A DNA stretch of 64,000 bases, from positions 32,001 through 96,000 of the forward strand of contig JBDLIE010000002.1 of assembly GCA_039715015.1 (NCBI GenBank), read 5' to 3'. The translations under genes were made by a program, and so were the position numbers. The notes under the pieces were generated by a model that was not told the DNA's origin, searched no databases, and saw only the letters and a list, made by a program, of their open reading frames with translations. This document shows, in pieces, positions 32,262 to 49,045 of the stretch. This DNA is from Thermodesulfobacteriota bacterium. GTDB taxonomy: Bacteria > Desulfobacterota > Desulfobulbia > Desulfobulbales > SURF-16. How positions within the stretch are numbered: the stretch's first letter is position 1; every line of letters starts with the position of its first letter.

Positions 32262-34883
32262 TTACAGAATTTTCTGCAAAGCCTGATAGTCTGTCTTACC
32301 TGTGCCAAGGACAGGAATCTCCTCAACTTCGACAAGACGGCGGATATTATGAAGGGCTGAAAGCCCGGCTTTGCGGATGGCCTTATTGGCCTGATCCCTT
32401 GTTATGCCGAAGGTAACAAAGAGAACCACCTCAGGCTGCTCCTCATCCGGGGTTGCCTCCACGGCCAGGGGAACACCTTCATCATTATCAGTATCGAGTG
32501 TGGCCAATAGGGCTGCTTCGATGGCAGGCAGGGAAATCATCTCACCTCCCAGCTTGATAAAACGTTTGAGGCGGCCACGAAAACTGAGAACACCCGCACC
32601 ATCCTCTGAAACCAGGTCACCTGTTTCATACCACTCTTTGCCGTCATGCTCCACAAAGGGCTGCTTGCCGTCATGATTGAGGTAACCCTTAAAAACATTA
32701 GGACCTCTCACCAGGAGCATACCCTGTTCTCCTAAACTTACGGGTTTGCGGCCATCCACATCGACAATAACATGCTCCATGGAGGGCAACATAGGCCCGA
32801 TGGTGCCAGGCACTGGATTGTCCGGATTATTGAGGCTAACGCCAGGGGCGCACTCCGTAACACCGTAGGCCTCACACATCACAACCTGGGGACAATCCTT
32901 GGCCATAGATTGATAGACATGCTCAGGGCATTTTTCTGCCCCGGTAAAGACCAGGCGAAGAGTGTCGAGCTGCCCTGGCTCAGCGGCGCGCAGAATACCG
33001 TTTAAAAAGGTAGGAGTGCCAATCAAAACGGTGTTCTTGTACACCTCAGTAATTCTAGCAAGGACACCAGCCTCGGTAGGGTTAGCATGATAAACCGTTT
33101 TCATGCCCATACACACAGGGAGGAGAAGTGTTCCGGTGAGCCCCAATGAGTGGAAAGGCGGCAGCATACCCAGCAGGCTATCATCACCATGAAATTTCAA
33201 AACCTGGGCAACATCCTGAAGGTTAGCAAGAAAGTTTCCGTGGCTTAGGGGCACGGCCTTAGGTCTGGCCTCGGAACCGGAGGTAAAAAGAATAGCTGCA
33301 ATGTCAGTAGCGGATCCATGACGAGAAAGCAGAGACCAGCTCCCATAACTTTTCATCTTTGCAGAAATTTTCCGCGGCAGGGAAAAGGTCTTAGCCAAGT
33401 CTTCAAGATGGAGCCAATCCGCCTTGAGGCCGTCAAGCTTAATCCCCTGCCCTGCCAGACGACCTACCAGGGCTTTTGCAGAAACCACCGTTTTCACCCC
33501 AACCTTCTCAAGGCAATAGGCCATATTGCCCTCACCAACGGTCCAGTTCACCATCACCGGTGTTTTCCCGGCAAAAAGCAAGGCAAGATAGCCAATGGTA
33601 CAGCCCACGCCAGCCGGCAGCATGAGTCCGACATTATCGCCGGGGATCTTGGCAAATTCCGGCACCAAAAGATGAAGGGCCGTTACAATATCGCGATTGC
33701 TGCGAGCACCACTGCGTAAATCAGCAACGATGGTTTTAGAGGGATTATTTATGGCTTGCTGCAGAAAAAGCTCTGTGATGGTCTCCCCTTTACCCAGGGT
33801 CAAAAGATCGGTGTTCTTATTGGTAAACCATTTTGCAGGAGGAGCGGAGACCTGATCATTTTTGCGGCTGATGATCTGACCAGAAGCAGCCAAGAGAAGA
33901 TCCTCGGCTGTATTAAGCGCTTCTAAATCATCAATGGTATAGCCAAACTCCTGTTCAATCCAGGCGGCAATCTCTGCCAGCCCCAGGGAGTCTACCCCCA
34001 GTTCACTGGCAAGCTTGTCCTTTTTGAGAATATTTTCGGCGCCGCTTATCTCTGTTATCTTGGCAAAAACCTGTTTTATCACCGCGTCGCTTACCGCTCC
34101 GGAATCTCCAGTGATTTTCTTTCGGCCAGGTTCCGGCATAATGCGCGGCCTGCTTCCCTTCCACCAAAAGTGGGGGACAAAGGTATTTGCAGCGGCCTTG
34201 CTATTATAGAAATCTTCTAAATATCGATTTAACACCAGCCTCTCGCCTGAATGGGGGATATCCTCAGGTTCTTCAAATTCGATAACAACCTGCCGTTTGG
34301 GCATAAAAAAAATAGCGTTCATCAGGAAGTAAAAGAAATGCTTGATGATATCGGCAAGAAGTGTGGGCGTTTTGCCGCTGGCCTTCGAAAAGGAGGAACC
34401 CCAAAGGCCTGTGGTTCGGACAAGCACAACGCGAATGTCCGGGGCCTGTTTTAGGATGGCAGCAACACCACCATTCCCCCGGATGGATTCATTTTGACTG
34501 CGATAGATACGCCCGGATGGGTAGAGCAGAACATTATCACCATGGTGCAAACTTTCGGTGATCTCGCCCATGGCTTGTAAAACCTCATCGCGGCTATGGC
34601 GGCCCTTGGTGGCGATATCCGGGATCGTTACACAGCGCACCATCTTCATTACCTGGCGGACAACCGGGATATCGACCTGGCTCTCGTCCGCCAGAGGACG
34701 GGGCCTAAAACGCTTATGCAAGGAGACATACATGATCAAGGGATCAACAAGAGCTGGATGGTTGGGCAGAAACAGGATGCCCTGCTGGGGGCCTGTTGGT
34801 TTGAGCCGGTCCAATCCCTTAAGAGTAATACGATAGCGCAAGCGCAAAAGAGTGCGCATAATGAAAACGATTATATTCAGCAT
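32262..34883 (-). CDS. Aas-like acyltransferase/ACP/acyl-ACP synthetase fusion
   Basis: PlsC motifs NHPALVD and YPSG, ACP motif LGVDSL, AMP-binding motifs FTSGSEARPK and GTGKTDY. Confidence 0.87.
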   Translation of the reverse strand: MLNIIVFIMRTLLRLRYRITLKGLDRLKPTGPQQGILFLPNHPALVDPLIMYVSLHKRFRPRPLADESQVDIPVVRQVMKMVRCVTIPDIATKGRHSRDEVLQAMGEITESLHHGDNVLLYPSGRIYRSQNESIRGNGGVAAILKQAPDIRVVLVRTTGLWGSSFSKASGKTPTLLADIIKHFFYFLMNAIFFMPKRQVVIEFEEPEDIPHSGERLVLNRYLEDFYNSKAAANTFVPHFWWKGSRPRIMPEPGRKKITGDSGAVSDAVIKQVFAKITEISGAENILKKDKLASELGVDSLGLAEIAAWIEQEFGYTIDDLEALNTAEDLLLAASGQIISRKNDQVSAPPAKWFTNKNTDLLTLGKGETITELFLQQAINNPSKTIVADLRSGARSNRDIVTALHLLVPEFAKIPGDNVGLMLPAGVGCTIGYLALLFAGKTPVMVNWTVGEGNMAYCLEKVGVKTVVSAKALVGRLAGQGIKLDGLKADWLHLEDLAKTFSLPRKISAKMKSYGSWSLLSRHGSATDIAAILFTSGSEARPKAVPLSHGNFLANLQDVAQVLKFHGDDSLLGMLPPFHSLGLTGTLLLPVCMGMKTVYHANPTEAGVLARITEVYKNTVLIGTPTFLNGILRAAEPGQLDTLRLVFTGAEKCPEHVYQSMAKDCPQVVMCEAYGVTECAPGVSLNNPDNPVPGTIGPMLPSMEHVIVDVDGRKPVSLGEQGMLLVRGPNVFKGYLNHDGKQPFVEHDGKEWYETGDLVSEDGAGVLSFRGRLKRFIKLGGEMISLPAIEAALLATLDTDNDEGVPLAVEATPDEEQPEVVLFVTFGITRDQANKAIRKAGLSALHNIRRLVEVEEIPVLGTGKTDYQALQKIL

Positions 34884-36148
34884 GGAGAATCCTTCTTACC
34901 ATAACGTTGAAAAGCAAAACTAAAACAAAAGGCAGCAACTGCTGTTGTAGAACCAAGGATCAGCATGGCAGTGCTGGGAGAGAGATTTCTATTCAATATC
35001 TCAAAGCAGGTGCCGGATAAGAAAATACCGCTGAAGGCGGAAAAATTTGACACCGCTATAATCTTGCCCTTTTGGTCCTTCCGGGGGCGAAGTTGAATAA
35101 AACTGGCCAGTGGTATGAGAAAAAGTCCTCCACCACACCCAGCAATGACAAGGGCCAAGATGAGCAAAGGCAGTTGAAGGCTCCCTCCGGTGAAATGGAT
35201 AGCCCCGAAGCTCGCCACAAGACCACACCCCATAACCAATACCGCCGGCCCCATAACCTTATGCCATCCCGGACCACTGGCAATCTTGGCAGCGAGGAAA
35301 GATCCGGCACAGACGCCAACCATGAGAGAAACCACGAGAAGGCTGGTCATGGTTTGCGACAGACCAAGCTCGGTTAAGCCCATAACATTTATCACTAAAA
35401 CGACAATGGAGGATATGAAATAAAAAAAAGCATCTCCACCAATGGCAGTAAGCAGAAGGCGGTCAGTCCGTACTTTGTAGAGATCAATAAGGGAGTGGAG
35501 AGGGCCAAGCCACGGAAAACTCTCACGTGCTCCTGCAGCCGGTCGTTTAACCACGCCAAAGCTCACCAACACACCAATGACAGAAACCAAGAGAACAAAA
35601 ATCGCCACTAACACCCTGCCAAAGGGGACAGCTGTGGCATACCAGCTCTGATCCAAGGCCACTCCTGCTAAACCGATACCGGCAAGGATAGCCAGGGTAG
35701 TGACAAGCTTGATCACGGCATTGGCCGTGGTCACATATTCTTTAGGGTAGAGTTCTGGGATGGAGCCATTAATGGCAGGCCCAAAAAGAGTGGACTGAGC
35801 CGCCATAATAAAGACCATGGCCAGGATACAAGGCCAATTCAGGGTCATTATTCCATAGGCCCCCACCAACATGGCGCCAAGCTCTAAGATCTTGGCGCCC
35901 ACCACAACATTTTTCTTAGAAAACCTGTCGGCAAGCCACCCAGCATGAGCTGAAAAGAGAATAAAAGGCAGCGAAAAAAGCATGGTAGCTGTGCCCTGTA
36001 GACCGCTTAAACCAGCGCTTACGGCAAGAAGCATGGCCGCCTGTTTAAAGAAATTATCGTTAAAAGCGCCCATAAAATAGGTAATGGCCATAGCAATAAA
36101 ACGAGAACGGCCTTTTTTAATCTGCGCTTCTATTTCAGGGGAATACAT
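34877..36148 (-). CDS. LplT-like MFS lysophospholipid transporter
   Basis: GAFNDNFFK, LPFILFS..AGWLADRFSK and QSTLFGP motifs; overlaps the aas-like gene. Confidence 0.85.
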   Translation of the reverse strand: MYSPEIEAQIKKGRSRFIAMAITYFMGAFNDNFFKQAAMLLAVSAGLSGLQGTATMLFSLPFILFSAHAGWLADRFSKKNVVVGAKILELGAMLVGAYGIMTLNWPCILAMVFIMAAQSTLFGPAINGSIPELYPKEYVTTANAVIKLVTTLAILAGIGLAGVALDQSWYATAVPFGRVLVAIFVLLVSVIGVLVSFGVVKRPAAGARESFPWLGPLHSLIDLYKVRTDRLLLTAIGGDAFFYFISSIVVLVINVMGLTELGLSQTMTSLLVVSLMVGVCAGSFLAAKIASGPGWHKVMGPAVLVMGCGLVASFGAIHFTGGSLQLPLLILALVIAGCGGGLFLIPLASFIQLRPRKDQKGKIIAVSNFSAFSGIFLSGTCFEILNRNLSPSTAMLILGSTTAVAAFCFSFAFQRYGKKDSPC

Positions 36149-36178
36149 TTTGTCCTTGTAAAAATATTGTGTCTGCTT

Positions 36179-36680
36179 CTAAAAAAGCAAAGTGGAGCTA
36201 ATGGCAATACTGGTAAGATCCCCAGCAAGATGGCTCACATAACAATCAACAAGGGACCAGCCCTGCAGACGTTTGCCGGCCAGCTCCACAAGGCACCAAC
36301 CACCATGGTGGCAAAGGTAAAAATCAGGACCAAATTTAACTGAAAATAAGGCAACAAGGTAAAATAATGATGGAACCCCAAAAAAGTCCATTAAGCCCTA
36401 TAATAACCGCTGGATGTTTACCACGAATTCGCGATTCAGCCAGCAAAAAACCACGCCAAAACCACTCTTCAAGGGCTGAGTTGATGGTCAGGCCCCAAAA
36501 GGCCGCCAACAAACAATAGCTGTTTATGCCTACTTGTGACGGCTACCTTTCCCATCAAGATCAGGAAAAAAGCAAGGGAAAGACCTTGAGATAAAAAGAA
36601 CTCCAGGTTGTGAAGGCCGGCAACAGGCCCATGAGTAGGAGAAGGACTAACGGTAGAGGGGAATGAGGACGTCTCGACAT
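36179..36680 (-). pseudogene. Frameshifted CPBP (Abi/CAAX) intramembrane protease pseudogene
   Basis: Motifs EEWFWRGFL, GFHH and SHLAGD occur in order but in three different frames; internal stops follow the ATG at 36680. Confidence 0.72.
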
Positions 36681-36925
36681 TTACTGAGGGTTAAATCATC
36701 TATTGGCTTAGAATTTCACGAACAACGCTTGATTCATTATAAACATAAAGATGATTCCTCTCCCCCACTTTTAACAGTATAATCTTCTCAACGTAGAAGA
36801 TTAAAAAAATCTGTATATCACTCATCTTCAGCAATAAGCTGTTCATGCTCCATGAGGCATGGCTATCTATTACCGGCTGAAGCAAGATAGTAATCAAAAA
36901 ATTGTAGGGAAAATAGATAACAACT

Positions 36926-37282
36926 ATGCAAAACCAGATACTTCTTCTACTCTTTGGCATCCTGGTTGGAATGGCGGCCTCCTTCTCAGGGCTTGGCGGC
37001 GGATTTCTTATGGTGCCGCTCCTCATCTTGCTGGGCTATACAGCCCAAAAGGCGGTGGGCACCTCATTTGTGGCTATTCTGGCCATTGCTATTTCCGCTC
37101 TTGTCGCCCATAACAAACTGGCCCATATCGATTACCGGGCTGGATTGCTTCTTGGTGCAGGTGGTGTTCTTGGCGCCCAGGTTGGTGCCCGTCTTATCGA
37201 TCAGGTCAGCACCGCTAATTTTAAAAAAATCTTTGCCATTATCCTTCTCGGCCTGGCCGGTTATCTCTTTTGGCATAAATGA
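36926..37282 (+). CDS. Half-size TauE/SafE family membrane protein
   Basis: SGLGGGFLMVP, AVGTS and GAQVGA motifs; 118 aa, one repeat only. Confidence 0.82.
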   Translation: MQNQILLLLFGILVGMAASFSGLGGGFLMVPLLILLGYTAQKAVGTSFVAILAIAISALVAHNKLAHIDYRAGLLLGAGGVLGAQVGARLIDQVSTANFKKIFAIILLGLAGYLFWHK

Positions 37283-37353
37283 CGTAACAGGTAGAAACCC
37301 CTTTCAGGAAAATTGCCAAGCCTCCTGCCACTATATTATTTTGTAGAAAAACT

Positions 37354-37836
37354 ATGACAACAACCCTCTTTCTCCATGGTCTTGACTCTTCTAGCCAGGG
37401 AACTAAAGGCCGTTATTTCAACACCCATTTCCCAGATGTCCTCAGTCCTGATTTCAATGGTGACCTTGAGCAACGTTTAATTCAGCTTGAAAAGGTCTGC
37501 TGTGACTTTGAAAAAGTTATTCTCATCGGCTCAAGTTTTGGTGGGCTCATGGCCACATGTTTTGCCATTCTCCACCCATCGCGTGTGGTAAAGCTTATTC
37601 TTCTTGCCCCGGCATTAAATTTCGAAGATTATCATCCCCCTGCAACCATGATTGCTTCCCCTACCCTTCTTGTTATGGGCGCACAAGATAGTGTCTGCCC
37701 GCCTGAGATAGTCGTGCCATTAGCAGATGCAACGTTTAGCAACCTGAAGACCCAGATCTTTGCTGATGATCATCTTTTAAGAAAGGTATTTCCTGAGATG
37801 GACTGGCACAAACTGCTTGGCGGCGCGGGGAACTGA
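37354..37836 (+). CDS. Small alpha/beta hydrolase (YqiA/YcfP-like)
   Basis: LHGLDS, nucleophile elbow GSSFGG, and Asp/His in GAQD and DDH. Confidence 0.85.
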   Translation: MTTTLFLHGLDSSSQGTKGRYFNTHFPDVLSPDFNGDLEQRLIQLEKVCCDFEKVILIGSSFGGLMATCFAILHPSRVVKLILLAPALNFEDYHPPATMIASPTLLVMGAQDSVCPPEIVVPLADATFSNLKTQIFADDHLLRKVFPEMDWHKLLGGAGN

Positions 37837-37854
37837 AAGTAGCGAGGGAAACTC

Positions 37855-39156
37855 TTACTCTGATTCGCCATAGCGATACTTGATATCCTGCAGAATAAAA
37901 TTCTCCAGGGTGTTATCAAAGGAACCTTTCAAACAATCCACTTTTTCCATATTGCCGTCTCTGACCAAAGCCAGATAACGGCACCCCCCAAAACAAAGGG
38001 GCAGATATTGGCATGAGCGGCATTTATTCTCATATTGCCAGTTATCGGTATGATACATAGAAATTTCTTTAACACCATTCCAGATATCACCTATCTCATA
38101 GTCGGGACGGCCAATAAGAACCGGACATTTACACAATGTGCCATCATAATTAATGGTCAAACTGTCATGACGCAGCACCTTGCACGGATTAGGCTTTTCC
38201 TCAGGGTAATAGTAGCCGGCTGCAAGTATTTTCTCTCTTAGCATTGACTGTGCCTGGACAAGCCACGTCTCTGTTAAAGTCTCACACCCTTGGCGATAGC
38301 TGCTCTCGGCAACATCATCCGTCTGCTGCATAACCGATGCAAAACGCACCTGATGAAGATGGTCCGGGCCAAGGTCTTTCTCTGCCAGGATATCCAGTAA
38401 CTCGGGAAATCGGTTATAGATGTGTTCAGTGAAATTCCCACCAAGGGATAGGGTGATCAGATCAGCACAGGATCGAAGATTTTCCAGAATAACAGCAAAG
38501 CTTGGTTTCCCAGAGATATAGGGGCGAGAATTATTGTGAAGATCAGGTGGGCCGTCCAGGGTTATCTTGGCTCCCACAAGTCCGTATGGGATAAGGCTTT
38601 TTACTGTTTCAGAGGTCAACAGTGAGCCATTAGTGATAAGGGAAAATTCAAACTCTCTCTCTCTCTGGGCCGTCATTTCCTGAAAGCCCTGACAAAGTTG
38701 CCGTATCAACGGCACATAGAGAAGGGGTTCACCGCCATAAAAGGTGATACTGAGCTTATCCCTGTCTTCAAACTGGCCCTCAACATACTTCAGCAGTTGA
38801 GCAGCAGTGTCAGCAGACATTGAAGACTTATCAGCTTTCAAACTCCCCTCATAGCAATAGGAACAGGCAAAATTACAAGCCATCCCTAGAATGATATCGA
38901 GATATAGACCTGAGCATCTTTTATTTATCTGATCAACAAAGGAGAAAACCTCTTGCTGTTCCGCCTCCAGGTCGTCCACAACAAAACCAAGCTCCGCAAG
39001 TTGTGGAACTATTTCGCCATCAAAACTACCTGATTTGAGGGCAACGAAATCAGCATCTTCCACAACAACAAGAGCTCCATTTTTGGTGGAATATAAAACA
39101 GTGAGACCTGATGAAGTATCCAATGGGAAATTTTTCAGGTAATGGGAAAGATGCAT
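37855..39156 (-). CDS. Radical SAM/SPASM peptide maturase (geopeptide-maturase-like)
   Basis: CNFACSYC, FYGGEPL, ITNG and TLDG; SPASM C..DGTLCKC..CRSCQYLPLCFGGC..C; N-terminal extension; small peptide ORF upstream. Confidence 0.9.
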   Translation of the reverse strand: MHLSHYLKNFPLDTSSGLTVLYSTKNGALVVVEDADFVALKSGSFDGEIVPQLAELGFVVDDLEAEQQEVFSFVDQINKRCSGLYLDIILGMACNFACSYCYEGSLKADKSSMSADTAAQLLKYVEGQFEDRDKLSITFYGGEPLLYVPLIRQLCQGFQEMTAQREREFEFSLITNGSLLTSETVKSLIPYGLVGAKITLDGPPDLHNNSRPYISGKPSFAVILENLRSCADLITLSLGGNFTEHIYNRFPELLDILAEKDLGPDHLHQVRFASVMQQTDDVAESSYRQGCETLTETWLVQAQSMLREKILAAGYYYPEEKPNPCKVLRHDSLTINYDGTLCKCPVLIGRPDYEIGDIWNGVKEISMYHTDNWQYENKCRSCQYLPLCFGGCRYLALVRDGNMEKVDCLKGSFDNTLENFILQDIKYRYGESE

Positions 39157-39196
39157 AAAGCGAAGAAGGTATCAGTAAAAACATGGTCATCAAACA

Positions 39197-39228
39197 AAAC
39201 GAGGAGACCTTAAAAGGTCTCCTCGTTT
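39197..39228 (-). terminator. Strong hairpin / leaky terminator between precursor and maturase
   Basis: 15-bp inverted repeat aaacgaggagacctt-aa-aaggtctcctcgttt; on the minus strand the arm ends in a U-rich run (ttttgttt). Confidence 0.75.
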
Positions 39229-39256
39229 CACATAAACTTTTCTAGGATTTCCTGGA

Positions 39257-39352
39257 TCAACCGCTTGGAGCACCGGGAGGGCAGAAAGCTTTAGATTTTG
39301 CAATAACCTCTGCCGTTGTTCCTTGATTTAAAACTATGACCTTCTTTTTCAT
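39257..39352 (-). CDS. Putative RiPP precursor peptide MKKKVIVLNQGTTAEVIAKSKAFCPPGAPSG (31 aa)
   Basis: Strong RBS GGAGGT 7 nt before the ATG. Lies between the TonB receptor and the rSAM/SPASM gene. Leader-like N-terminus and Cys/Pro/Gly core. Confidence 0.8.
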   Translation of the reverse strand: MKKKVIVLNQGTTAEVIAKSKAFCPPGAPSG

Positions 39353-39437
39353 TCTATCAACCTCCGCGCTAAATTACCTAATCAATGAGTGGATCATTTT
39401 CAAATAAACCTATCACACCGTTACCTAAAAAACAAAT

Positions 39438-41411
39438 TTAAAAATTTAACTTTAAACCCACCTCAGCATGTCTAGGAGAATTCTCAAAACGTTCTTGTAC
39501 GTACTGGCTTGAATTAAATAGATTTCGTACTACACCAAAAAGGGCTGCCCGGAATTTTTCTGTACTAAAAATTTCTTTATTCAAGCTGATATCCCAGAGA
39601 AAATTGTTCGTTTCCAGTGGTTCAGGAAGCTCGGTGAGAAGTTCGCCCCACTTCACATAATGTCCGGAAATCTCTGCCGTGAGAATGTCAGGATGATCAT
39701 AAATGAAAATAATATTTGCCGTACTTGAATGATCAGCTTGATCCTCTGGCCAGTCAGTATAAGTATAGGTAAAATTAGCCTGGAGGGAAAGGTGATAAAA
39801 AGCCTCAGTGCGCACTTCAAATTCAAATCCCTGACGTTGGCTACGATCACCATTCATCTTCCAAATGCTGTAATCAGGGGCAGTTACCCAGGTATTCTCG
39901 ACGTCATGATGAAACAAGGTTGTTTTGACGTGAAGATAGGGAATGTCCTTACTCTCTAAACCAATTTGGTAGGTCCAATTTTTTTCTGCGTCCAAATCAG
40001 GATTAACCACGGTAGGGCTGTATAAGGCATCACCCTCAAGATACCAGACCGGTGGTTTGCGAAAGCCTCGGGAAACGGACGCCCTCAGCAAACTAGCATC
40101 ACTAAGCTGGTATGTAACACCGAGTGAAGGGCTTATTAACTCATCGGAGACTGTGGAAATATGATCAAGGCGAACGCCTGGAGTAATTGTCCAATCATCA
40201 AATACAAAGGTTCCGTTTAGATAGTAGCCTGACACATCCTCAGCGAGGAGATCCATTTCGTAATAATCACCCATGGGGGCAAGGTGTGGATAAAAGAAAT
40301 CCCAGATGCTGCTATCTCTATACTTCCAAGTCATCTGAACCTCATTACGTTGATAGTCAATACCGGCTACCAAGGCATGTTTTCCCAAAAGATAGTCGAA
40401 TCGAAGAGCACCACCTGTACTCTCTTGATCATTAAAAAAATCCTCAATTAGAGTGATGGGTCGATGGGTGGTTTTTTGAAAAGCCCTATAGTCATTATCA
40501 AAACGAAAGATCTCAGCATGAAAATTAAGTCCTTCGGCAATGAGGGCGTCAAAACGAGCACTCATAAATGTATTTTTATCATGAAGTTCCTGGCTATAAC
40601 CCATGGGCGGGTTAACTGAGTAAGCCGTAAGCCACTTAACGTGCAAAAATTCCGGTTGTGAATAAAACCCTGAAACATCAAGGGTCATATCGGAGGCGAA
40701 GTCAAAATGAAACTTGCCGTAACCAGTTGTATTCTTGAAAAATCTATCCTCAAGGAGGCCGTCAGACTCCTGGTTTCCAGCATAGACATAATAACTTAGA
40801 GAAGAAACCTTTCCGGCCACTTCGGCAGTGATATCGTGGGTGTCTTTTTCTCCAAAGGAGGTCACCAAGTCAACCTGCGGAGTTTTTGACTTCCCTGGAT
40901 CCTTAGTAATAATATTAATAACTCCACCCAAAGCTGATCCCCAAGTGGATGAGGCAGCGCCCTTAATCACTTCAATTCTTTTGATAATCCGGACGGGAAC
41001 CATATTTACCCAGGCGACTTCTACAGAACTCTTATTCACCCTTACTCCGTCAAGAAGAACCGTCACATGTTCCCAGTCAGATCCCTGAATATAGATATAA
41101 GATGCTGTGTTGAAATCAAGCCCTCCGTAATCCACATAGACCCCGGCCACCCGGTTAAGAACATCGTCAACATTATGGGCGTTCATCCGCTCGATTTCTT
41201 CTGCGGTAATGATGGTGACATTCTCTGCCACCTGATTGATAGGTTTCCTGATGCGAGTGGCAGCTTCAACAACTTGCGACTCGTCAAAATAAAGATCGAG
41301 AAACTCGTCATCACCAGCCATCTCCGCTGCTTCCCCGGCAAGGACGGAATTTGGCACAATGAATAAACACGGTACTATTAAGATGAGCCCCAAAAACAAA
41401 AACTTGTGCAT
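39438..41411 (-). CDS. TonB-dependent receptor
   Basis: Signal peptide, plug motif IKRIEVIKGA..GGVINIIT and C-terminal Phe; start at ATG 41411 after GGGGA. Confidence 0.92.
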   Translation of the reverse strand: MHKFLFLGLILIVPCLFIVPNSVLAGEAAEMAGDDEFLDLYFDESQVVEAATRIRKPINQVAENVTIITAEEIERMNAHNVDDVLNRVAGVYVDYGGLDFNTASYIYIQGSDWEHVTVLLDGVRVNKSSVEVAWVNMVPVRIIKRIEVIKGAASSTWGSALGGVINIITKDPGKSKTPQVDLVTSFGEKDTHDITAEVAGKVSSLSYYVYAGNQESDGLLEDRFFKNTTGYGKFHFDFASDMTLDVSGFYSQPEFLHVKWLTAYSVNPPMGYSQELHDKNTFMSARFDALIAEGLNFHAEIFRFDNDYRAFQKTTHRPITLIEDFFNDQESTGGALRFDYLLGKHALVAGIDYQRNEVQMTWKYRDSSIWDFFYPHLAPMGDYYEMDLLAEDVSGYYLNGTFVFDDWTITPGVRLDHISTVSDELISPSLGVTYQLSDASLLRASVSRGFRKPPVWYLEGDALYSPTVVNPDLDAEKNWTYQIGLESKDIPYLHVKTTLFHHDVENTWVTAPDYSIWKMNGDRSQRQGFEFEVRTEAFYHLSLQANFTYTYTDWPEDQADHSSTANIIFIYDHPDILTAEISGHYVKWGELLTELPEPLETNNFLWDISLNKEIFSTEKFRAALFGVVRNLFNSSQYVQERFENSPRHAEVGLKLNF

Positions 41412-41825
41412 TACATCCCCCGACAATGCTTTAAAAAAAAATAGCCGCTCTCCTAAAAAAGGAAATTATGGCTCAAAAAACATTTAATTTTTTTAAAAAT
41501 GTTGCCCTGCAAAAAGGACTTCCGAAAAACTTTTTCCAAAATATTATATAAAACTTTAGAATCTTTTACCAATTCATTATTGAAACATCTAGTTTTGGAC
41601 AATCACTCTCTTTTGCAGTTAGGACACATATTTCATCTCTCAGATTTAAATGAATGAAAGCAACCATTCTTCCTGACAACAAATTGCAATTATTAATGTA
41701 AATATTCTTTGAATATACTAAGGTTAAAAGTATTGGTTTTCCTCTGATTATCAGGAAATCCTCTGAAAAGATTAATTTTTCGTATATTTTTTTGCGGCAT
41801 CTCTTTTTTAAAACAAGCAAACTAC

Positions 41826-42734
41826 ATGCTTAAACACTTCGTCCTGTCTATTTTCCTTATATTCTCGACGGCCTCCTATTCCTATGGCTTCGAGGTGGTT
41901 GCTGTGAAGTCCAGCACAGCCGAACCCTATAGCCTCGCTTTTGAATCCTTCAGCCGCACTTTCACCAGTGCCGTACCTACCCGTGGGCCTAAATCGATAA
42001 CACAGAACGCGATAATTACCCGCACCATTAATCAGGATGACACCCCTGACAGACTTGTGCGTCAAATCCGCAAAGAGAATCCTGACCTTCTAATTGCCTT
42101 TGGTTCAAAAGCATTACGATTTACTGCTTCCATCAAAGACATCCCTATTATTTACCTGCTGGTTCCGTCCCCAGACAAAATCATTAGAGATAGGAGCAAT
42201 GTCACAGGTGTTCTTCTTCAACCTGTGGCTGGCCTCGAATTTCGGGCCCTTCGCAAGATAGCCCCCGCTTTAAAAAGAATCGGCGTAGTCTACAACCCTG
42301 CCAAAAGCAAGGATCTCGTCAGGGAGACGATCAGCAACAATAAAGATCTCCATTACATGCTGCGTCCGGTTCAACAGCCTCAAGAGGTGGCCAAACAACT
42401 TGACACTCTAGCCTCGGAGGTCGATCTGGTTTGGATGCCACCCGACAGTACTGTTCTCACGCCTCACACTGAGCAGAGTTTTTACCTTTTTTCTCTGCAA
42501 AACGAGGTTCCTCTCCTTGCTTTTTCAGAGAAATATCTCAAAAAAGGGGCCAGTTTTGCTGTAAGTCTCGACCTCTCCAGCATGGGAGATATGGCGGCAG
42601 ACCTTGCCCTGCTCATAAAAAATGGCGCCAAGGCCGTCAACATCCCACCCATCCGGCCCCAACAGGTAAAACTTAAACAAAACAGCATTATCCTCAACAA
42701 GCTTGGTTTCCATATCCAGGAGGTCGGCCAATGA
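41826..42734 (+). CDS. Periplasmic ABC-type substrate-binding-like sensor protein
   Basis: Signal peptide, PDLLIAFG, RIGVVYNP and WMPPDSTV; no permease or ATPase nearby; overlaps the kinase gene. Confidence 0.8.
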   Translation: MLKHFVLSIFLIFSTASYSYGFEVVAVKSSTAEPYSLAFESFSRTFTSAVPTRGPKSITQNAIITRTINQDDTPDRLVRQIRKENPDLLIAFGSKALRFTASIKDIPIIYLLVPSPDKIIRDRSNVTGVLLQPVAGLEFRALRKIAPALKRIGVVYNPAKSKDLVRETISNNKDLHYMLRPVQQPQEVAKQLDTLASEVDLVWMPPDSTVLTPHTEQSFYLFSLQNEVPLLAFSEKYLKKGASFAVSLDLSSMGDMAADLALLIKNGAKAVNIPPIRPQQVKLKQNSIILNKLGFHIQEVGQ

Positions 42735-44494
42735 TCTTTGCAAAATTTATCAAACAGGTTCAGGCAAGCTATTCAGCCAAACTCATTTTGATTTTTATTG
42801 CCTCTATATGCCTGATGGGTACCATTCTTAACTTCACCTTTATCCGTATGCAGCAAGACTCCTACGCGACATACACACGCAACAGTGGTCTTTCCATGTC
42901 TCGACTGCTGGCCAAGTCTGTCCAGATCGACGTTTTCACCGAAAACAAAGAACAGTTAGCCATCCCTATGGACGCCCTTTTAAGCCAGGAAAATATTCTT
43001 AAGGTTGAAATATTTACCGACAAAGGTGAGTTGCTGGTTTCTCGAGCTTCAAGTGAGAGCTGTGAGATTCCTGACTTAAAAAAAACACTGGGCGATTTGC
43101 CGCAAAGCAAATCGTCCTTTAATGAGTGGCCCAATTGTTTTTCCTTCATATGGCCTGTTCTGACACTCCCTCAATATAAAAGCGAAGACTCCCTCTACTT
43201 TGATGAAGCCAGCGAACTCACTCCTGTGGACAATCATCCCCTGGGATACGTTTCCATCATCATGTCGAAACGTCAGTATCAGCAGGACATTCAGCAAATT
43301 TTTCTTAAAACCGGCCTCACTATTCTTTTCATTTTAGTACTCTTGGTCACCGGCATTCTTCTGCTTTTCAGAAAAATGACTCTGCCGTTAAAGAATCTGA
43401 TAGGGAAGATACAAAGAGAACGAAACATTGGCGAGGTACATGATGACATTGGCCTTCTTGACACCACAGTTACCAGCCTAGTTGACGAACTTGACCGTTC
43501 TTTTCAAACCATTAACGATCTAACCACAGGCCTGGAGGACAAGGTAACAGAACGCACCAAACAGCTTGCCATGGCCAATACTGAATTGACCAACCGTCAG
43601 GAGTATCTTGAAGAGTCAAACCTAAAACTTGAAAAGGCGATGAAGGAGCTTAAGGAAACAGAAGGCCAACTGATCCAGTCTGAAAAAATGGCGGCATTAG
43701 GTCAAGTTGTGGCAGGCGTTGCCCATGAGATCAACAACAATATCAACTTTATATCCGGGGCACTACCATCGCTGACCCGCGCCCTAAGTGACATTCAAAA
43801 ACTGACAAAAAAATTTGACGAGGCCTTTGTCCAGGCGTCCGGGGATGATGCTGAAAAAAAACAGCAGGAAGCAATCGCCCTAAAAAAAGAGCTTGAAGAG
43901 GATAATCTCTTCAACTCTCTGGATCAACTCATGGCAAACATTCGTGAAGGCGTCAACCGGACAACGAGCATCGTTTCTGAACTGCGTACTTTTTCTCGCT
44001 CTGACGAGCAGGGCTTCAAAAAGGTCGATCTCCACGATTCCATTAATTCAACCATCACCTTTCTGAACAAGAAATATCTTACAGATGTTGATATCCACAA
44101 AGATTATGGCACTATTCCGCCGGTAAGTTGCCGACCGGGCCGGATAAATCAGGTTTTTCTCAACATTATGAATAACGCCATACAGGCCATGGGGAAAAAG
44201 GGAGGCATCCTGACAATTAGCACTTTTCTTAATGGCGACGACGTACATATCCGTTTTACCGACACAGGGGCCGGAATAAACCAAGATACCCTTCCTAAAA
44301 TTTTCGACCCCTTTTTTACGAATAAAGACACAGGTGAAGGATCAGGCATTGGCCTTGCTGTGAGTTACAAAATTATCCAAGAGCACCAAGGCCGGATCGA
44401 CGTGCAGAGTAAAGAGGATAAAGGCAGCACCTTTGAAATCGTTCTACCGATGGAACACGTCGATGAGACGATCTCTGAGTCTAAGAACAGTTAA
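42731..44494 (+). CDS. Membrane sensor histidine kinase
   Basis: Two TMs, HAMP-like coiled coil, AHEINN, DTGAG, FDPFFT and GSGIGL. Confidence 0.93.
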   Translation: MIFAKFIKQVQASYSAKLILIFIASICLMGTILNFTFIRMQQDSYATYTRNSGLSMSRLLAKSVQIDVFTENKEQLAIPMDALLSQENILKVEIFTDKGELLVSRASSESCEIPDLKKTLGDLPQSKSSFNEWPNCFSFIWPVLTLPQYKSEDSLYFDEASELTPVDNHPLGYVSIIMSKRQYQQDIQQIFLKTGLTILFILVLLVTGILLLFRKMTLPLKNLIGKIQRERNIGEVHDDIGLLDTTVTSLVDELDRSFQTINDLTTGLEDKVTERTKQLAMANTELTNRQEYLEESNLKLEKAMKELKETEGQLIQSEKMAALGQVVAGVAHEINNNINFISGALPSLTRALSDIQKLTKKFDEAFVQASGDDAEKKQQEAIALKKELEEDNLFNSLDQLMANIREGVNRTTSIVSELRTFSRSDEQGFKKVDLHDSINSTITFLNKKYLTDVDIHKDYGTIPPVSCRPGRINQVFLNIMNNAIQAMGKKGGILTISTFLNGDDVHIRFTDTGAGINQDTLPKIFDPFFTNKDTGEGSGIGLAVSYKIIQEHQGRIDVQSKEDKGSTFEIVLPMEHVDETISESKNS

Positions 44495-44559
44495 AAAATA
44501 TTTTTTTACTTTAATGAGAGGTGAAGCACACCTCATTAAACATGTTGCGGGGTAAACTT

Positions 44560-46395
44560 ATGGATAAGCTGAAACTCCTTTATGTAGATGATGAAGAGGT
44601 GAATCTTTCCAATTTCAAAATGGCCATGAAACGCCATTTTTCGATTATCACAGCACTATCTGCCAAAGAGGCGCTCGACAGCTTTGCCGAACATGACGAC
44701 ATTGCTCTTGTGGTTGCCGACCAGAGAATGCCCGGAAAGACCGGTACCGAGCTCCTGGGAGAAATTCGTGAGCTCAATTCTGATACGGTTCGCATTATGC
44801 TCACAGCCTATAGCGATCCTGCAGATATCATGGAGGCCATTAACACCGGTGAGGTATACCATTATCTAACAAAACCATGGAAGGAAGAGATCCTTCTCGA
44901 CATCCTCAGCAAGGGCTCTGAAAAATATCGCCTGACCAAGGAAAACAAATCATTAGTTGAGCAACTGACTGTAAAGAATGAAGAACTTAAGCAAGAGTTG
45001 CAAACCAGTCGTCTCTTAAAAGACTCTCTTGTCAGACGTGATCTCATCCTGGCAGCTGTAAATGAGACGTCGCAAAAAATCATCAGCAGCTCCTATTGGC
45101 GCAAATTCACAGAACCTCTTATTGGGCGCCTAGGGCTTGTTATGGCGGTTTCCCGCGTTCACATATACAGCTTCCAAAAAGATTCTTTTGAGAAGCTTAC
45201 TGCCAATCAGGAATTTGAATGGAGCTCTGAGACAGCAGGCGCAGATAATGTTCCGCCTGTGCCCGAAATTTTCTCCTTCCCTGATGCTCAATTGGATCGC
45301 TGGCTCTCTCTACTCCAAAAAGGCGAATCTGTGGTGGACAACACTACGGACCTTCCCTCGCCTGAGACCTCCTTGCTCAATTCTCTAGGAATTATTTCAA
45401 TAGTCTGCACGCCCATTATGGTGGAGGACTCTTGCTGGGGCTTTCTCAGTCTTGAAGACTGCAGCACAGAACGGACCTGGCCGGAGCTTGAGGTTGCAGC
45501 TATAAAAAGCGCTGCAAGCCTCATTGGCGAAGCGGTTCACCGGCAAGAAATGAACATCGAACTTTCCGCCAAACAGGACCAGCTGGCCCATGCTGGAAGA
45601 CTCACCGCCATTGGCGAAATGGCAAAGGGTATGGCCCATGAAATCAACCTTCCAATGAGCCTAATCAGTCTTGGGGCAGACGAGCTGCATCAATATCTAA
45701 CCAAGAACATACCAGAATCCCCCTATATAAAAACAACCAAAGACATAAGCGGCCAGGTTTCAAAGGTGATGCGCATAATCGAACATATGCGTGTATTCTC
45801 AACACTGTCCAAAGAAAACATCACTGACATCAACCTTTTCTGGACAGTGAACAGCGCTCTCACCTTTTTCCGTGAGCAGTTCAGGGTTTCTCTCATCAAA
45901 CTACACGAGGAAACCACTGAGGCTGTATCGTATATCTCAACTGACAACCAGAAGGTTGAGCAGATACTGGTCAACCTTCTGGCCAATGCCCGTTATGCGG
46001 TGATAAAAAAATCTGAAGAAATTAAAAATTTCCCCATGGAGGTATGGGTCAGACTCTATCAACAAGAACTCACTGATGACATTCTAGAAAAAATTTCTGC
46101 TCAAGACAGAAAGGACGATCTCACAGCCGTTCTTGTTTTAGAAGTGGAAGATAATGGTATCGGTATGTCTGAAGAAACCATAAAACATTGCACAGAACCT
46201 TTTTTCTCCTCTAAAACTGTGGGTGAAGGTACTGGCCTGGGCCTCTCTGTCTCCAATTCCTTAATCAAGGAGCTCGGATTTCATCTTGAGATAGAATCTG
46301 CCTTGGGTGAGGGTTCTCTTTTCCGGCTCACAATCCCAGCCTACGAAGAATACCCAATGCTTCTCGACAACAACCAGGTTCAGTTTAAGGGATAA
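44560..46395 (+). CDS. Cytoplasmic REC-GAF-histidine kinase
   Basis: Receiver LLYVDDE..DQRMPG, GAF (SIVCTPI..WGFL), AHEINLP and GTGLGL. Confidence 0.92.
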   Translation: MDKLKLLYVDDEEVNLSNFKMAMKRHFSIITALSAKEALDSFAEHDDIALVVADQRMPGKTGTELLGEIRELNSDTVRIMLTAYSDPADIMEAINTGEVYHYLTKPWKEEILLDILSKGSEKYRLTKENKSLVEQLTVKNEELKQELQTSRLLKDSLVRRDLILAAVNETSQKIISSSYWRKFTEPLIGRLGLVMAVSRVHIYSFQKDSFEKLTANQEFEWSSETAGADNVPPVPEIFSFPDAQLDRWLSLLQKGESVVDNTTDLPSPETSLLNSLGIISIVCTPIMVEDSCWGFLSLEDCSTERTWPELEVAAIKSAASLIGEAVHRQEMNIELSAKQDQLAHAGRLTAIGEMAKGMAHEINLPMSLISLGADELHQYLTKNIPESPYIKTTKDISGQVSKVMRIIEHMRVFSTLSKENITDINLFWTVNSALTFFREQFRVSLIKLHEETTEAVSYISTDNQKVEQILVNLLANARYAVIKKSEEIKNFPMEVWVRLYQQELTDDILEKISAQDRKDDLTAVLVLEVEDNGIGMSEETIKHCTEPFFSSKTVGEGTGLGLSVSNSLIKELGFHLEIESALGEGSLFRLTIPAYEEYPMLLDNNQVQFKG

Positions 46396-46504
46396 AGCTT
46401 GGAAAAAATAGCCGGCAAGAGAAAAAAAACCTCGCGCTCTCTAACAAACTCTATTAGCATCTTATCATAGGTGCACACTACTCAACTGTAAGGAGCCGCC
46501 GCCC

Positions 46505-46888
46505 TTGATTTCAGCAAGAAACAATAAAGTCTTGATTGTTGATGACCAGCCACTTAACAGGCTTTTTCTTGCCGACCTTCTCAAGATGCATGAGATCAAT
46601 CCCACCGAAGCCACCAATGGCAACGAGGCTGTCCAGCAGTGGCTTAAAAATGATTATGCAGTCATTCTGATGGATATCAAAATGCCAGACCTAAATGGCA
46701 TTGATGCCACACGGATCATCCGACAGAAAGAAATGGAACAGGGTTTAGCCAAAACACCGATTATAGCTGTTACCGCTTACGGGACCAAAGAAACCCAGAA
46801 TGATTGCCGGAATGCCGGCATGGATGGCTATATCCCCAAGCCGGTTAATGTATCAGATCTCCTCGAAATGATAGAAAACCTTCATTGA
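46505..46888 (+). CDS. Single-domain response regulator
   Basis: LIVDD, LMDIKMP, AVTA and KP receiver motifs. Confidence 0.9.
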   Translation: MISARNNKVLIVDDQPLNRLFLADLLKMHEINPTEATNGNEAVQQWLKNDYAVILMDIKMPDLNGIDATRIIRQKEMEQGLAKTPIIAVTAYGTKETQNDCRNAGMDGYIPKPVNVSDLLEMIENLH

Positions 46889-47024
46889 TTTCTTTCTTCA
46901 TTTCTTCTTTCCCCCTCCTTTTTTTGACTCAGCCCATCGTTTCTTGAGCTCTCTCTACATTGAGCCCCAAACAAACAAGGCGCGATTTTTCACAAATTAC
47001 CACCTAGGCCGGAAGTTAATAATT

Positions 47025-47987
47025 TCAGTCGTTAGCTGGAAAATTTTCCGTCACTATACGCACCATATTGCTGCGAGGAAATTCCTTTTTCAAAAGAGAC
47101 TTCAAGTTCTTTTTAAGTTTCCCAACCCCAACCTCAAACTCATCCACCGAGAAACCCTTTTCCTTGATTAAAACCCGTTGCTGATCAAGCTTGACCAAGG
47201 TCAGAGAGCGGTCACGTTTATAGGTCAACAAAACAAGTGATCCTCCCTCATTAAGTTGAGACATTTTCTGGATTACAACAGGCACCACATTAGCAATATC
47301 CACCATTATTTCTTCACTCACACTGGTTAATGAATCACGCTCCAAAAGCGCTTGTTCTTCCATCTCAAAATCTGCTGCCATGCTCATTTGCTTTGAAGCT
47401 GCATCTTTACGTTTTCTTGGAGCTACAGACCTTACCTCTGGAGAAGCGGGCATTTCATTTTTCTTTGCCTCTTGCTGAAAGACAAGTGCCGGGGCCGGCA
47501 TTGGCTCTTCTTCAGTCACCAAACTTTTCCCTTGCTGCGGCGCTTCAACGATTGCATCTTCACTAGACATAGGCAACTGTGGGGTGTCCTCGGTAATTAT
47601 AGGAGAAGTTGCCTTATGCTCCACCGGAGGTGGCGGCGCAAGATTGATGTAGAGGAGAATACTAGCTGCCGCTGCAAGCAACGAACCTGCAGTGGCAAAA
47701 CTAAGTGCTCGCTTTGCAAGCCATGGGCCTTTAATGACCTTTCCTGAACCAGCAAAATTTTCCATACTTAAAAGACGCCACTCATCATAGCAGGATTGAC
47801 ATTCTGCCAAATGGGCAAGACAATGCTGTCTCTCCACCTCTGAGAGAGAGCCATCAACCAGCAATGCCATCTTGTCAGAAGTCAGACAGTTACCACTTTT
47901 AACGTCCTTGCTGGCTGCAAGCGCCGTCAGGGCTGTGGCCTTATTTGATTCTGTAAAAAGGTTGTCTTGCTTACTCACCAATCCCAC
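47025..47987 (-). CDS. Membrane-anchored zinc-binding (zf-HC2) anti-sigma factor
   Basis: HLAECQSC (HxxxCxxC) followed by one TM; downstream of the sigma-like gene. Confidence 0.75.
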   Translation of the reverse strand: MGLVSKQDNLFTESNKATALTALAASKDVKSGNCLTSDKMALLVDGSLSEVERQHCLAHLAECQSCYDEWRLLSMENFAGSGKVIKGPWLAKRALSFATAGSLLAAAASILLYINLAPPPPVEHKATSPIITEDTPQLPMSSEDAIVEAPQQGKSLVTEEEPMPAPALVFQQEAKKNEMPASPEVRSVAPRKRKDAASKQMSMAADFEMEEQALLERDSLTSVSEEIMVDIANVVPVVIQKMSQLNEGGSLVLLTYKRDRSLTLVKLDQQRVLIKEKGFSVDEFEVGVGKLKKNLKSLLKKEFPRSNMVRIVTENFPAND

Positions 47988-48041
47988 CTATATTTTTCAA
48001 TAATCCCATACTGCCATAGACGGACATATCAAACATCTTTG

Positions 48042-48899
48042 TCAACATTCTTGGTTTAATAACAACAGTAGTTCTTCCGCCAGCCCTGCATCAGTAAATG
48101 TTTTTTTGAGTCGTAATAAGAGGCGGCGCATCTTACCGTGGGCCTGATGAACTGTCAGTTTAAGGAGCTTGGCGGCCTGGGAAACAGAAAGCTCATCTTG
48201 AAAACAGAGCTTCAACAGCAACCTCTCCTCAGCGCTCATAGATATCGAAATATCCATTACTCCGCGAAAAGAGTCATTCATGGAAGGGGTAACAGGTTGG
48301 TCCTGGAGAAGGTTTTGGAAGATGATGGCAAAAAGAATACCCCGCTCCTTTTTTTCCAAGTCTGCCACTTGGCTTTCCTGACCCGGAGAAGGTTCACAGT
48401 CCATATCGCCATCGCTGGTAAGATCTTCCTTACCGCTATATTTCCCGCAGTCGGTTATTTCAGACAGGATACGCGAGGCTGCCTCTTCAGCATCAAAATG
48501 GACGTCGGGACCACACGTTTCCAGGCGGTTTAAAGCATCGGGCAAGGATTGGCGCTCTAGACACAAGAAACGATAGAGAACAAGCCACCAGCCTCCAAGC
48601 TTTGTGAGCCAAGAGGGAGGTCGCAATCGCCCAAATCGACTCCGACTGAAATCCTCAAAGAGGCGGCAGGTCACCGAACCGAGATAGCTCGAAAATCGGG
48701 CCCGGCCGGAAAACCCGGCAAGACGTTTACCATCGCCATCCTGCAATTTCTCCAGGGCATAGACCACAGCCTCCTCAGCCAGGCCAGGATCGTTAAAACG
48801 CCTGGCTGCCAAGCGATCAAGCAAGGCGAGATGGTCATGGATTTTCTCTACAAGTTTTTTCGACACAGACACATATCCAAGCCACAGGGCAACCTTCAT
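48042..48899 (-). CDS. Atypical ECF-type sigma-70 family factor
   Basis: Region 2-like AEEA..FSSYL..RLFEDF; region 4-like MSAEERLLLKL..LSVSQAAKLL; long linker between them. Confidence 0.72.
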   Translation of the reverse strand: MKVALWLGYVSVSKKLVEKIHDHLALLDRLAARRFNDPGLAEEAVVYALEKLQDGDGKRLAGFSGRARFSSYLGSVTCRLFEDFSRSRFGRLRPPSWLTKLGGWWLVLYRFLCLERQSLPDALNRLETCGPDVHFDAEEAASRILSEITDCGKYSGKEDLTSDGDMDCEPSPGQESQVADLEKKERGILFAIIFQNLLQDQPVTPSMNDSFRGVMDISISMSAEERLLLKLCFQDELSVSQAAKLLKLTVHQAHGKMRRLLLRLKKTFTDAGLAEELLLLLNQEC

Positions 48900-49045
48900 T
48901 CACAAACCAGAAACTCTCAAAACTTTACTCATTTGCTCGCAAAAACTCCAAGGCTGTTTTTTTCACGACAAAAGAGAATCAGCTGTCCGTCCCCTAAGAC
49001 AGATGATGTGGAAACTGACGTTAATTTCAACAAAAGGAGATTCAA

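Follow-up and report, generated by a model that had tools for sequence, protein, structure and literature searches.

The named family closest to the locus described here is that of the geopeptides, whose two database entries, TIGR04280 (a hypothetical equivalog) and TIGR04229, name an enzyme and a peptide only. In the literature we searched, the family has this name but no product or role: no paper on a geopeptide product or function came up, and term searches of PMC3543383, PMC2996986, PMC3531188, PMC9062424 with two supplements, and PMC13635244 gave nothing on the system. Systems of other kinds resemble parts of the locus. LuxP–LuxQ is a sensor made of a binding protein and a kinase, and the staphylococcal agr specificity groups differ in a hypervariable block that comprises the processing enzyme, the propeptide and the specificity part of the receptor. 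Among maturases, the ranthipeptide enzymes CteB (PDB 5WGG/5WHY), PapB and Tte1186 have the same RRE, radical SAM and SPASM fold as the enzyme of this locus. A regulatory role for a ranthipeptide has a precedent in Clostridium, where a knock-out alters sporulation and agr expression (PMC8102284). We found that the locus represents a RiPP system known by name only, here in a new form with a single Cys, and that a receptor, a binding protein and kinases stand beside it.

A single-Cys precursor precedes a geopeptide maturase

In the window (the whole 64,000-nucleotide stretch of DNA that was analysed), the first-pass annotation had described a GGAGGT-N7-ATG start, a 31-residue ORF and a TGA stop, all of which are as it wrote, on the minus strand, which it left unstated (Table 1). 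A ribosome-binding site and a short ORF alone are not beyond chance: the genome holds 155 cases of GGAGG-N5..10-ATG followed by an ORF of 25–45 residues, 82 of them with a Cys. Because such pairs are common, conservation decides, and it is on this ground that we accept the precursor as real. An orthologue on the metagenome contig L104, where the maturase is 78% identical over the 114 residues compared, is likewise a 31-codon ORF with the same core; it keeps the Shine–Dalgarno site, and most homologues are preceded by a purine-rich ribosome-binding site. The two ORFs differ by 13 synonymous and 8 non-synonymous codon changes (pN 0.108, pS 0.664), none of the latter falling in codons 17–30 (core pN 0, pS 0.677), which indicates that the peptide is under purifying selection relative to the L104 orthologue. 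An HMM built only from precursors with two adjacent Cys residues picked out the 31-residue peptide, with E 6.5e-5, from a set of 28,352 segments translated in six frames. The ORF is almost certainly a real precursor for the adjacent maturase. Its N-terminal β-strand leader would bind the RRE, Ala18 is nearly invariant, and a hydrophobic signal stretch is absent. We found no second precursor in the host genome.

The proposal that this RiPP precursor is the substrate of the maturase that follows it was supported, the enzyme, of radical SAM/SPASM type, being a member of TIGR04280 (Table 1). As in the geopeptide system, a homologous leader and a core Cys lie directly upstream of a maturase that scores above the family cut-off; the difference is one Cys here against Cys-Cys there, and no match to TIGR04229. 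Indeed, no Pfam or NCBIfam model matched the 31-residue peptide, TIGR04229 (cut-off 30 bits) included. This model covers little of the family: only 10 of 58 aligned precursors gave any match to it, the best with E 1.8e-4, and it failed to pick up a further two at E 0.001. The ESM Atlas returned only unnamed matches below 0.9. Calling the peptide unannotated therefore holds for its exact sequence, which is absent from a collection of 15 billion proteins, but not for its family, as four of the seven homologous precursors that we looked up are present.

Conserved small ORFs do stand upstream of maturase homologues, with a precursor no more than 1.2 kb away in 71 of 74 distinct maturase ORFs (a count that leaves out the own-genome loci L027–L035 and requires the CxxxCxYC motif) and the remaining three all at contig ends. 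In this locus, the precursor lies 104 nt from the maturase start. A later set of 17 loci has a precursor in 15; it is absent within 1.5 kb upstream in G423 and G444, whose maturases (L169 and L170) also have no receptor over that distance. Of 301 genomes sampled from the phylum, 22 had a match to TIGR04280 above its cut-off, the named relatives are mostly from Desulfobulbaceae and allied Thermodesulfobacteriota, and NCBI names one maturase of the same clade 'geopeptide radical SAM maturase'. Gene number varies in places: two tandem precursors lie ahead of a single maturase in L003:2612-2931, and a single receptor is followed by two precursor–maturase pairs in L094:4339-8901.

A hairpin follows the precursor stop

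The 15-bp hairpin that had been noted before the maturase is present, one base wider than its quoted start, with 14 Watson–Crick pairs, one terminal G-U pair and a 4-nt loop, and it ends 40 nt before the maturase ATG. Its folding energy is -24.9 kcal/mol (z -6.8), which none of 200 shuffles equalled, and L104 retains the hairpin with a compensatory C-G to A-U pair change. In 55 of 71 loci, the stop codon of the precursor is followed by a strong terminator-like fold (z below -2, with base-shuffled sequences as controls). A simple terminator scan did not list the hairpin of this locus, probably because the U tract is interrupted, and no Rfam family, riboswitches included, reached its gathering score in 36000–48000. 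Whether as a leaky terminator or as a stabilising stem, the hairpin would hold precursor mRNA above maturase mRNA. The 39157–39195 stretch is pyrimidine-rich, with no purine-rich ribosome-binding site before the maturase ATG, as in many homologues; it may lower maturase translation further.

Table 1 Positions of the cassette genes and of sites within them
Feature	Position	Strand	Remarks
Geopeptide radical SAM/SPASM maturase, 433 aa	37855..39156	-	TIGR04280 469.5 bits against a cut-off of 400
Terminator-like hairpin, 15 bp, interrupted U tract	39196..39229	-	between precursor and maturase
31-aa single-Cys geopeptide precursor	39257..39352	-	ATG 39352-39350, 31 codons, TGA 39259-39257
Precursor Cys24	39281-39283	-	invariant in family alignment
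Precursor Phe23	39284-39286	-	replaces first Cys of the usual Cys-Cys
Shine–Dalgarno GGAGGT	39360..39365	-	7 nt upstream of precursor ATG
TonB-dependent receptor	39438..41426	-	co-oriented; ends 73 nt before precursor ribosome-binding site; Pfam plug and barrel only
Receptor Leu45-Tyr46-Phe47 (41294-41286) and inferred TonB box, about residues 50-56	41259..41294	-	
Periplasmic binding protein PF04392, aromatic-amino-acid-binding family	41826..42734	+	no adjacent ABC permease/ATPase
Membrane histidine kinase HK1	42731..44494	+	two transmembrane helices, periplasmic Cache-like domain
HK1 loop Leu155-Tyr156-Phe157	43193-43201	+	in periplasmic Cache-like domain
Cytoplasmic REC-GAF-histidine kinase HK2	44521..46395	+	
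Single-domain response regulator	46505..46888	+	neighbour in close relatives also

A receptor, a binding protein and kinases accompany the precursor

The first-pass annotation had seen the precursor and the maturase; it had missed the family name, the derived single-Cys clade and the cassette of receptor, binding protein and kinase. The locus consists of two divergent gene groups, one with receptor, precursor, hairpin and maturase in the same orientation and one with the binding protein and the kinases. The receptor matches best to transporters of cobalamin, haem and siderophores, with every one of these matches far below cut-off, and the host genome encodes TonB. Receptor, binding protein and kinase were complete in 17 of 20 loci from the family or order and in 14 of 20 from the phylum, in various gene orders. 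The incomplete cassettes are four short or contig-edge loci, L073 and L145, which are without some of the parts, and a distant branch (L158–L160), in which two members carry a binding protein of family 5 and a dCache kinase in place of the usual pair. HK2 is kept in this family, with other outputs in its place elsewhere; it is likely to be the next relay step, and the single-domain response regulator is likely to be the end of the local relay. Beside the cassettes examined there was no conserved exporter, protease or ABC permease, the host genome (99.99% complete) gave no match to a C39 peptidase, and no conserved sigma-54 site was found upstream of the receptors.

The arrangement recalls FecA–FecR–FecI in the route proposed for the signal, inward from the outer membrane by way of the periplasmic N-terminus of the receptor. 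Unlike FecA, however, the receptor here has no N-terminal signalling domain and no conserved anti-sigma/ECF pair; the roles of anti-sigma and sigma factor would fall to a binding protein and a histidine kinase, together with a short linear motif. One difference from ranthipeptide systems is a diderm host with an outer-membrane receptor. Some loci have missing or broken genes. In L163:8594-13681 (G007) there are a receptor, a Cys-Cys precursor, a binding protein and a kinase but no maturase, and this query found none elsewhere in the G007 genome (92% complete). The cassette genes of L166 (G063) are in several frameshifted pieces, and the maturase of L052 (G030) has one internal TGA; decay or assembly error may be the cause in either case.

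The kinase and the receptor share a Leu-Tyr-Phe motif

We predicted the complex of two copies of HK1 periplasmic residues 38–190 with the binding protein, together with three controls. The complex scored 0.61, which may reflect likeness to solved pairs of binding protein and sensor, against 0.06 for the best control; the mark used for this score was reached by 116 of 157 solved pairs and 2 of 215 mismatched ones, counts that are only roughly valid here. The runs agreed in at least 91% of contacts, with a partner pLDDT of at least 84. This model supports docking of the binding protein on the periplasmic domain of HK1, a predicted likeness to LuxP–LuxQ. The tightest predicted contacts join HK1 Leu155 and Tyr156 to binding-protein residues 234, 233, 206, 114, 112 and 131. 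In fold and pocket the binding protein resembles CD0873, VC_1101 and SP1069 (PDB 6HNI, 3LKV and 3LFT), which bind Tyr, Phe or Trp; its Ser234 aligns with CD0873 Glu263 and its Met204-Pro205 with Val235-Pro236, residues that hold the tyrosine ligand of CD0873 (PMC6816091). Thus, the Leu-Tyr-Phe loop of HK1 is predicted to sit in the ancestral tyrosine pocket of the binding protein. LuxP and the aromatic-amino-acid binders hold a free small molecule, whereas the pocket here is predicted to hold a kinase Tyr, with the receptor copy of the motif as its rival.

That copy was found in 66 of 76 receptor N-termini, 62 of them at the same offset, beside the TonB box. The register of the box comes from alignment to BtuB, whose TonB-box position we take as the basis for placing it here; in BtuB the box undocks on ligand binding. 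The motif is also in 30 of 43 kinase loops, against a background of 690 of 18,073 26-residue windows (3.8%). Counted per locus, 29 have it in both receptor and kinase, 7 in the receptor only (by the search pattern used for the kinase), 5 in neither and none in the kinase only. Of the five loci with the motif in neither protein, most belong to a single lineage, and the pocket of their binding proteins is little changed. Leu-Tyr-Phe is absent from the host's other TonB receptor, from the receptor of the family-5 branch and from all 74 of 74 precursors. In that distant branch, L158:5657-12506 and L159:5031-10266 encode maturases below the TIGR04280 cut-off; L158 combines a Cys-Cys precursor with a receptor that lacks the motif, and no precursor was seen upstream in L159.

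Receptor barrel, precursor and maturase change as a block

Receptor trees track the maturase and the peptide type, and the binding protein and kinases track the host. Two close relatives illustrate this, G005 with a Cys-Cys precursor and G006 with a single-Cys one. They are 91, 93, 94 and 95% identical in the binding protein, the two kinases and a flanking gene, and 47% identical in the maturase and 54% in the receptor. Their DNA is 92–96% identical on both flanks, and the break falls within the 5' end of the receptor gene, receptor identity being 96 and 86% over the first 100 columns and 31–74% thereafter. Over 24 loci, in correlations that are descriptive only because kin are not independent, the binding protein and the kinase co-vary (partial r 0.90), receptor residues 35–100 follow the binding protein (partial r 0.59 versus 0.09) and residues 101–662 follow the maturase (0.43–0.54 versus 0.25–0.30). 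These comparisons suggest an agr-like exchange between close relatives, in which the barrel of the receptor moves as a block with precursor and maturase. Both the block swap and the split between receptor N-terminus and barrel would also be expected from physical linkage, which alone could give the receptor gradient because the 5' end of the receptor gene is the part nearest the binding-protein gene. The likeness to staphylococcal agr lies in a hypervariable block of enzyme, propeptide and receptor specificity between conserved flanks; there is no homology, and what varies here is a receptor barrel in the outer membrane, with the kinase constant.

Receptors also occur apart from producers of their type. 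Two Cys-Cys producers, G017 and G002, have an extra single-Cys-type receptor with no precursor behind it. The G017 orphan is sister to the receptor of this locus (99.2/97), and its contig, which has no maturase, also encodes a binding protein and a kinase of its own; the G002 orphan groups with the receptor of G004 (98.5/100), and G002 has a single binding protein for its two receptor types. Both orphan receptors are intact, with pN well below pS. Block swaps together with orphan receptors call to mind agr groups, or the piracy of siderophores. Receptors of other types that lack a producer are also present in L167:4999-14351 (G012) and L080:3547-5589 (G036), in each case beside a binding protein.

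A partner-swap model and its alternatives

We propose that Cys24 is likely to be thioether-cyclised by the adjacent radical SAM/SPASM enzyme, giving a type-specific extracellular signal. The leader would bind the RRE, and Cys24 would bind auxiliary cluster I and become linked to a nearby non-acidic residue. The matured peptide would then bind the co-inherited TonB-dependent receptor. At rest, the HK1 loop is predicted to be held in the tyrosine pocket of the binding protein; ligand binding would undock the receptor TonB box and expose the receptor motif which, being identical to that of the kinase, would draw the binding protein off HK1 and alter kinase output. Because this partner switch would act through the shared motif, only the barrel would have to match the peptide. 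With specificity confined to the barrel, a joint exchange of receptor, precursor and maturase would be possible, and additional receptors could listen to other types.

It is quite probable that the product is read by this receptor and kinase. The combination of a single-Cys geopeptide signal, its receptor and a partner-swap relay is our best explanation, with about an even chance of being right in the main, and for the shared-motif relay across the envelope the chance falls just short of even. The relay is possibly a new signalling mechanism. The broadest claim, of a trans-envelope system in which diderm anaerobes make a peptide pheromone with a radical SAM enzyme and a TonB receptor without a dedicated signalling domain baits a repurposed amino-acid binding protein off a kinase, with swappable groups, the single-Cys type among them, and eavesdropping neighbours, is tentative and leans towards being wrong. 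If the signalling reading is true, sulfur- and metal-cycling anaerobes would have peptide quorum or kin sensing with agr-like groups and eavesdroppers; if the shared-motif relay is true, it would add a route from an outer-membrane receptor to a histidine kinase.

The same cassette and the same predicted complex of binding protein and kinase would also fit import of the signal. The matured peptide would enter the periplasm via the receptor, bind the binding protein and displace the kinase loop, with the receptor motif only tethering the binding protein near the pore. LuxP–LuxQ and the sensing of enterobactin by PfeS are parallels, receptors of this class are importers, TonB is encoded in the genome, and the distant branch has a binding protein of family 5, which includes peptide binders. 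We nevertheless consider this unlikely, since the binding proteins of G005 and G006, at 91% identity, serve very different peptides and the single one of G002 serves two receptor types. Moreover, the pocket is aromatic, yet an aromatic residue is near the Cys in only 7 of 106 cores and the motif is in 0 of 74 precursors.

Alternatively, the product might serve as a carrier of metal or as a cofactor, with methanobactin and PQQ as models. The cognate receptor would take it up, the kinase would regulate supply only, and the orphan receptors would be piracy of a public good; siderophore systems typically have type-specific receptors and extra receptors for foreign types. The matches of the receptor to transporters of cobalamin, haem and siderophores, although far below cut-off, point this way, as do the two adjacent Cys residues of most family members, but in this peptide the single Cys would be consumed by a thioether and the core has no His or Asp. 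There is also no ABC permease/ATPase beside any cassette examined and no riboswitch at gathering score in 36000–48000, and the listener modules retain binding protein and kinase. Taken together, these observations make a carrier or cofactor improbable.

A Cys thioether is the favoured crosslink

The partner-swap model begins with a thioether at Cys24. The 106 distinct cores divide into 100 with Cys-Cys and 6 with a single Cys. Cys24 is the sole invariant column in the aligned precursors (58 of 58), so that it is the second Cys of the dyad that is retained; the first position is Phe in two of the six single-Cys cores, Asn in three and Gly in one, and a seventh single-Cys precursor, cut by a contig end, has Gly there. 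The single-Cys maturases form one clade (support 100/99; 6 of 68 full-length rows) that spans two genera, its breadth being based on genome and contig searches, and 401 genomes of the order gave no new maturase scoring near it. The single-Cys type is a derived clade within the Cys-Cys family. Specific to its maturases are Asp138Thr and Met326Lys, in 6 of 6, and Tyr342Cys, in 5 of 6; positions 138 and 326 vary in Cys-Cys lineages too.

The maturase model (pLDDT 91.6) has an N-terminal RRE-like domain of three strands and three helices, and among solved folds it comes closest to that of CteB, a thioether maturase (E 2e-21, TM 0.68, 18% identity). The sequence carries CxxxCxxC at 94/98/101 and SPASM Cys residues at 325/344/392 and 379/382/388/408, together with an extra conserved Cys291 and the clade-specific Cys342. 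The two SPASM sets align with the two auxiliary clusters of CteB, AC1 corresponding to 325/344/392, and AC1 is where CteB binds its substrate Cys (PMC10177961). Cys291, conserved in 67 of 69 maturases, adjoins a low-confidence loop of the model and could fill the open iron site used by thioether enzymes. The likeness to CteB thus extends to the Cys residues of AC1 and AC2; the differences from CteB, PapB and Tte1186 are the 18–19% identity, the extra Cys291 and the absence of a CX3D or Thr acceptor. An Asp or Glu at +1 to +6 after the Cys is found in 7 of 106 cores, and this peptide has no PapB-type acidic acceptor four residues on. The best NCBIfam runners-up for the maturase are Cys-peptide maturases, and cyclophane-maturase models score far lower.

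We lean towards a Cys24 thioether as the crosslink of the product. Of the two chemistries suggested earlier, a sacti- or ranthipeptide-like Cys thioether is the likeliest because Cys24 is invariant and the closest solved fold is CteB. The other, a Phe-linked crosslink, is unlikely because the Phe position is not conserved: across the cores it is mostly Cys (100 of 106), the six single-Cys ones having Phe, Asn or Gly there. An aromatic-crosslinked (cyclophane) RiPP does not fit either, as there is no conserved core aromatic, Phe being present in 2 of 6 single-Cys cores. With one Cys in 31 residues, this is the simplest substrate of the family, and its crosslink could be read without ambiguity.

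The precursor might still be real and the crosslink something other than a thioether, with Phe23 or another carbon as the radical partner (a cyclophane or other C-C bond) or with a chemistry that has changed in the single-Cys clade. L104 keeps Phe23 through a synonymous change, Asp138Thr, Met326Lys and Tyr342Cys lie near the active site and the SPASM domain, and Cys291 may fully ligate cluster I. However, Asn or Gly replaces Phe in 4 of 6 single-Cys cores while Cys24 does not vary, the variability of positions 138 and 326 extends to Cys-Cys lineages, and the maturase matches Cys-peptide models far better than cyclophane ones, which makes this reading very improbable. There is next to no chance that the TGA encodes selenocysteine in a 36-residue precursor like the SbtA selenopeptide: the frame is open for four codons past it, the host genome encodes tRNA-Sec and a selA that scores above cut-off, and a selenopeptide/radical SAM pair has been reported from Geobacter and relatives (PMC9204691), but we reject read-through because the L104 orthologue has TAA at that exact codon with unrelated sequence beyond, the other four complete single-Cys precursors stop at TAA or TAG, and the first 40 nt past the UGA fold at only -3 kcal/mol with no GGUG motif.

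Neighbouring genes

Beyond the response regulator, the region 47025–50746 encodes a likely zinc-finger anti-sigma protein (47025-47987, minus strand) with no Pfam or NCBIfam match, an ECF-like sigma factor (48042-48899, minus strand) that scores below the TIGR02937 cut-off and, beside this pair, a divergent vWA-domain lipoprotein (49046-50746, plus strand). The ECF-like pair is a conserved neighbour of the cassette in a few same-genus loci only. On the other side of the cassette, 32262-37836 encodes an acyltransferase/acyl-ACP synthetase, an MFS gene, a TauE-family protein and a small α/β hydrolase; these genes are kept only in same-genus loci, and their proximity is probably plain synteny.
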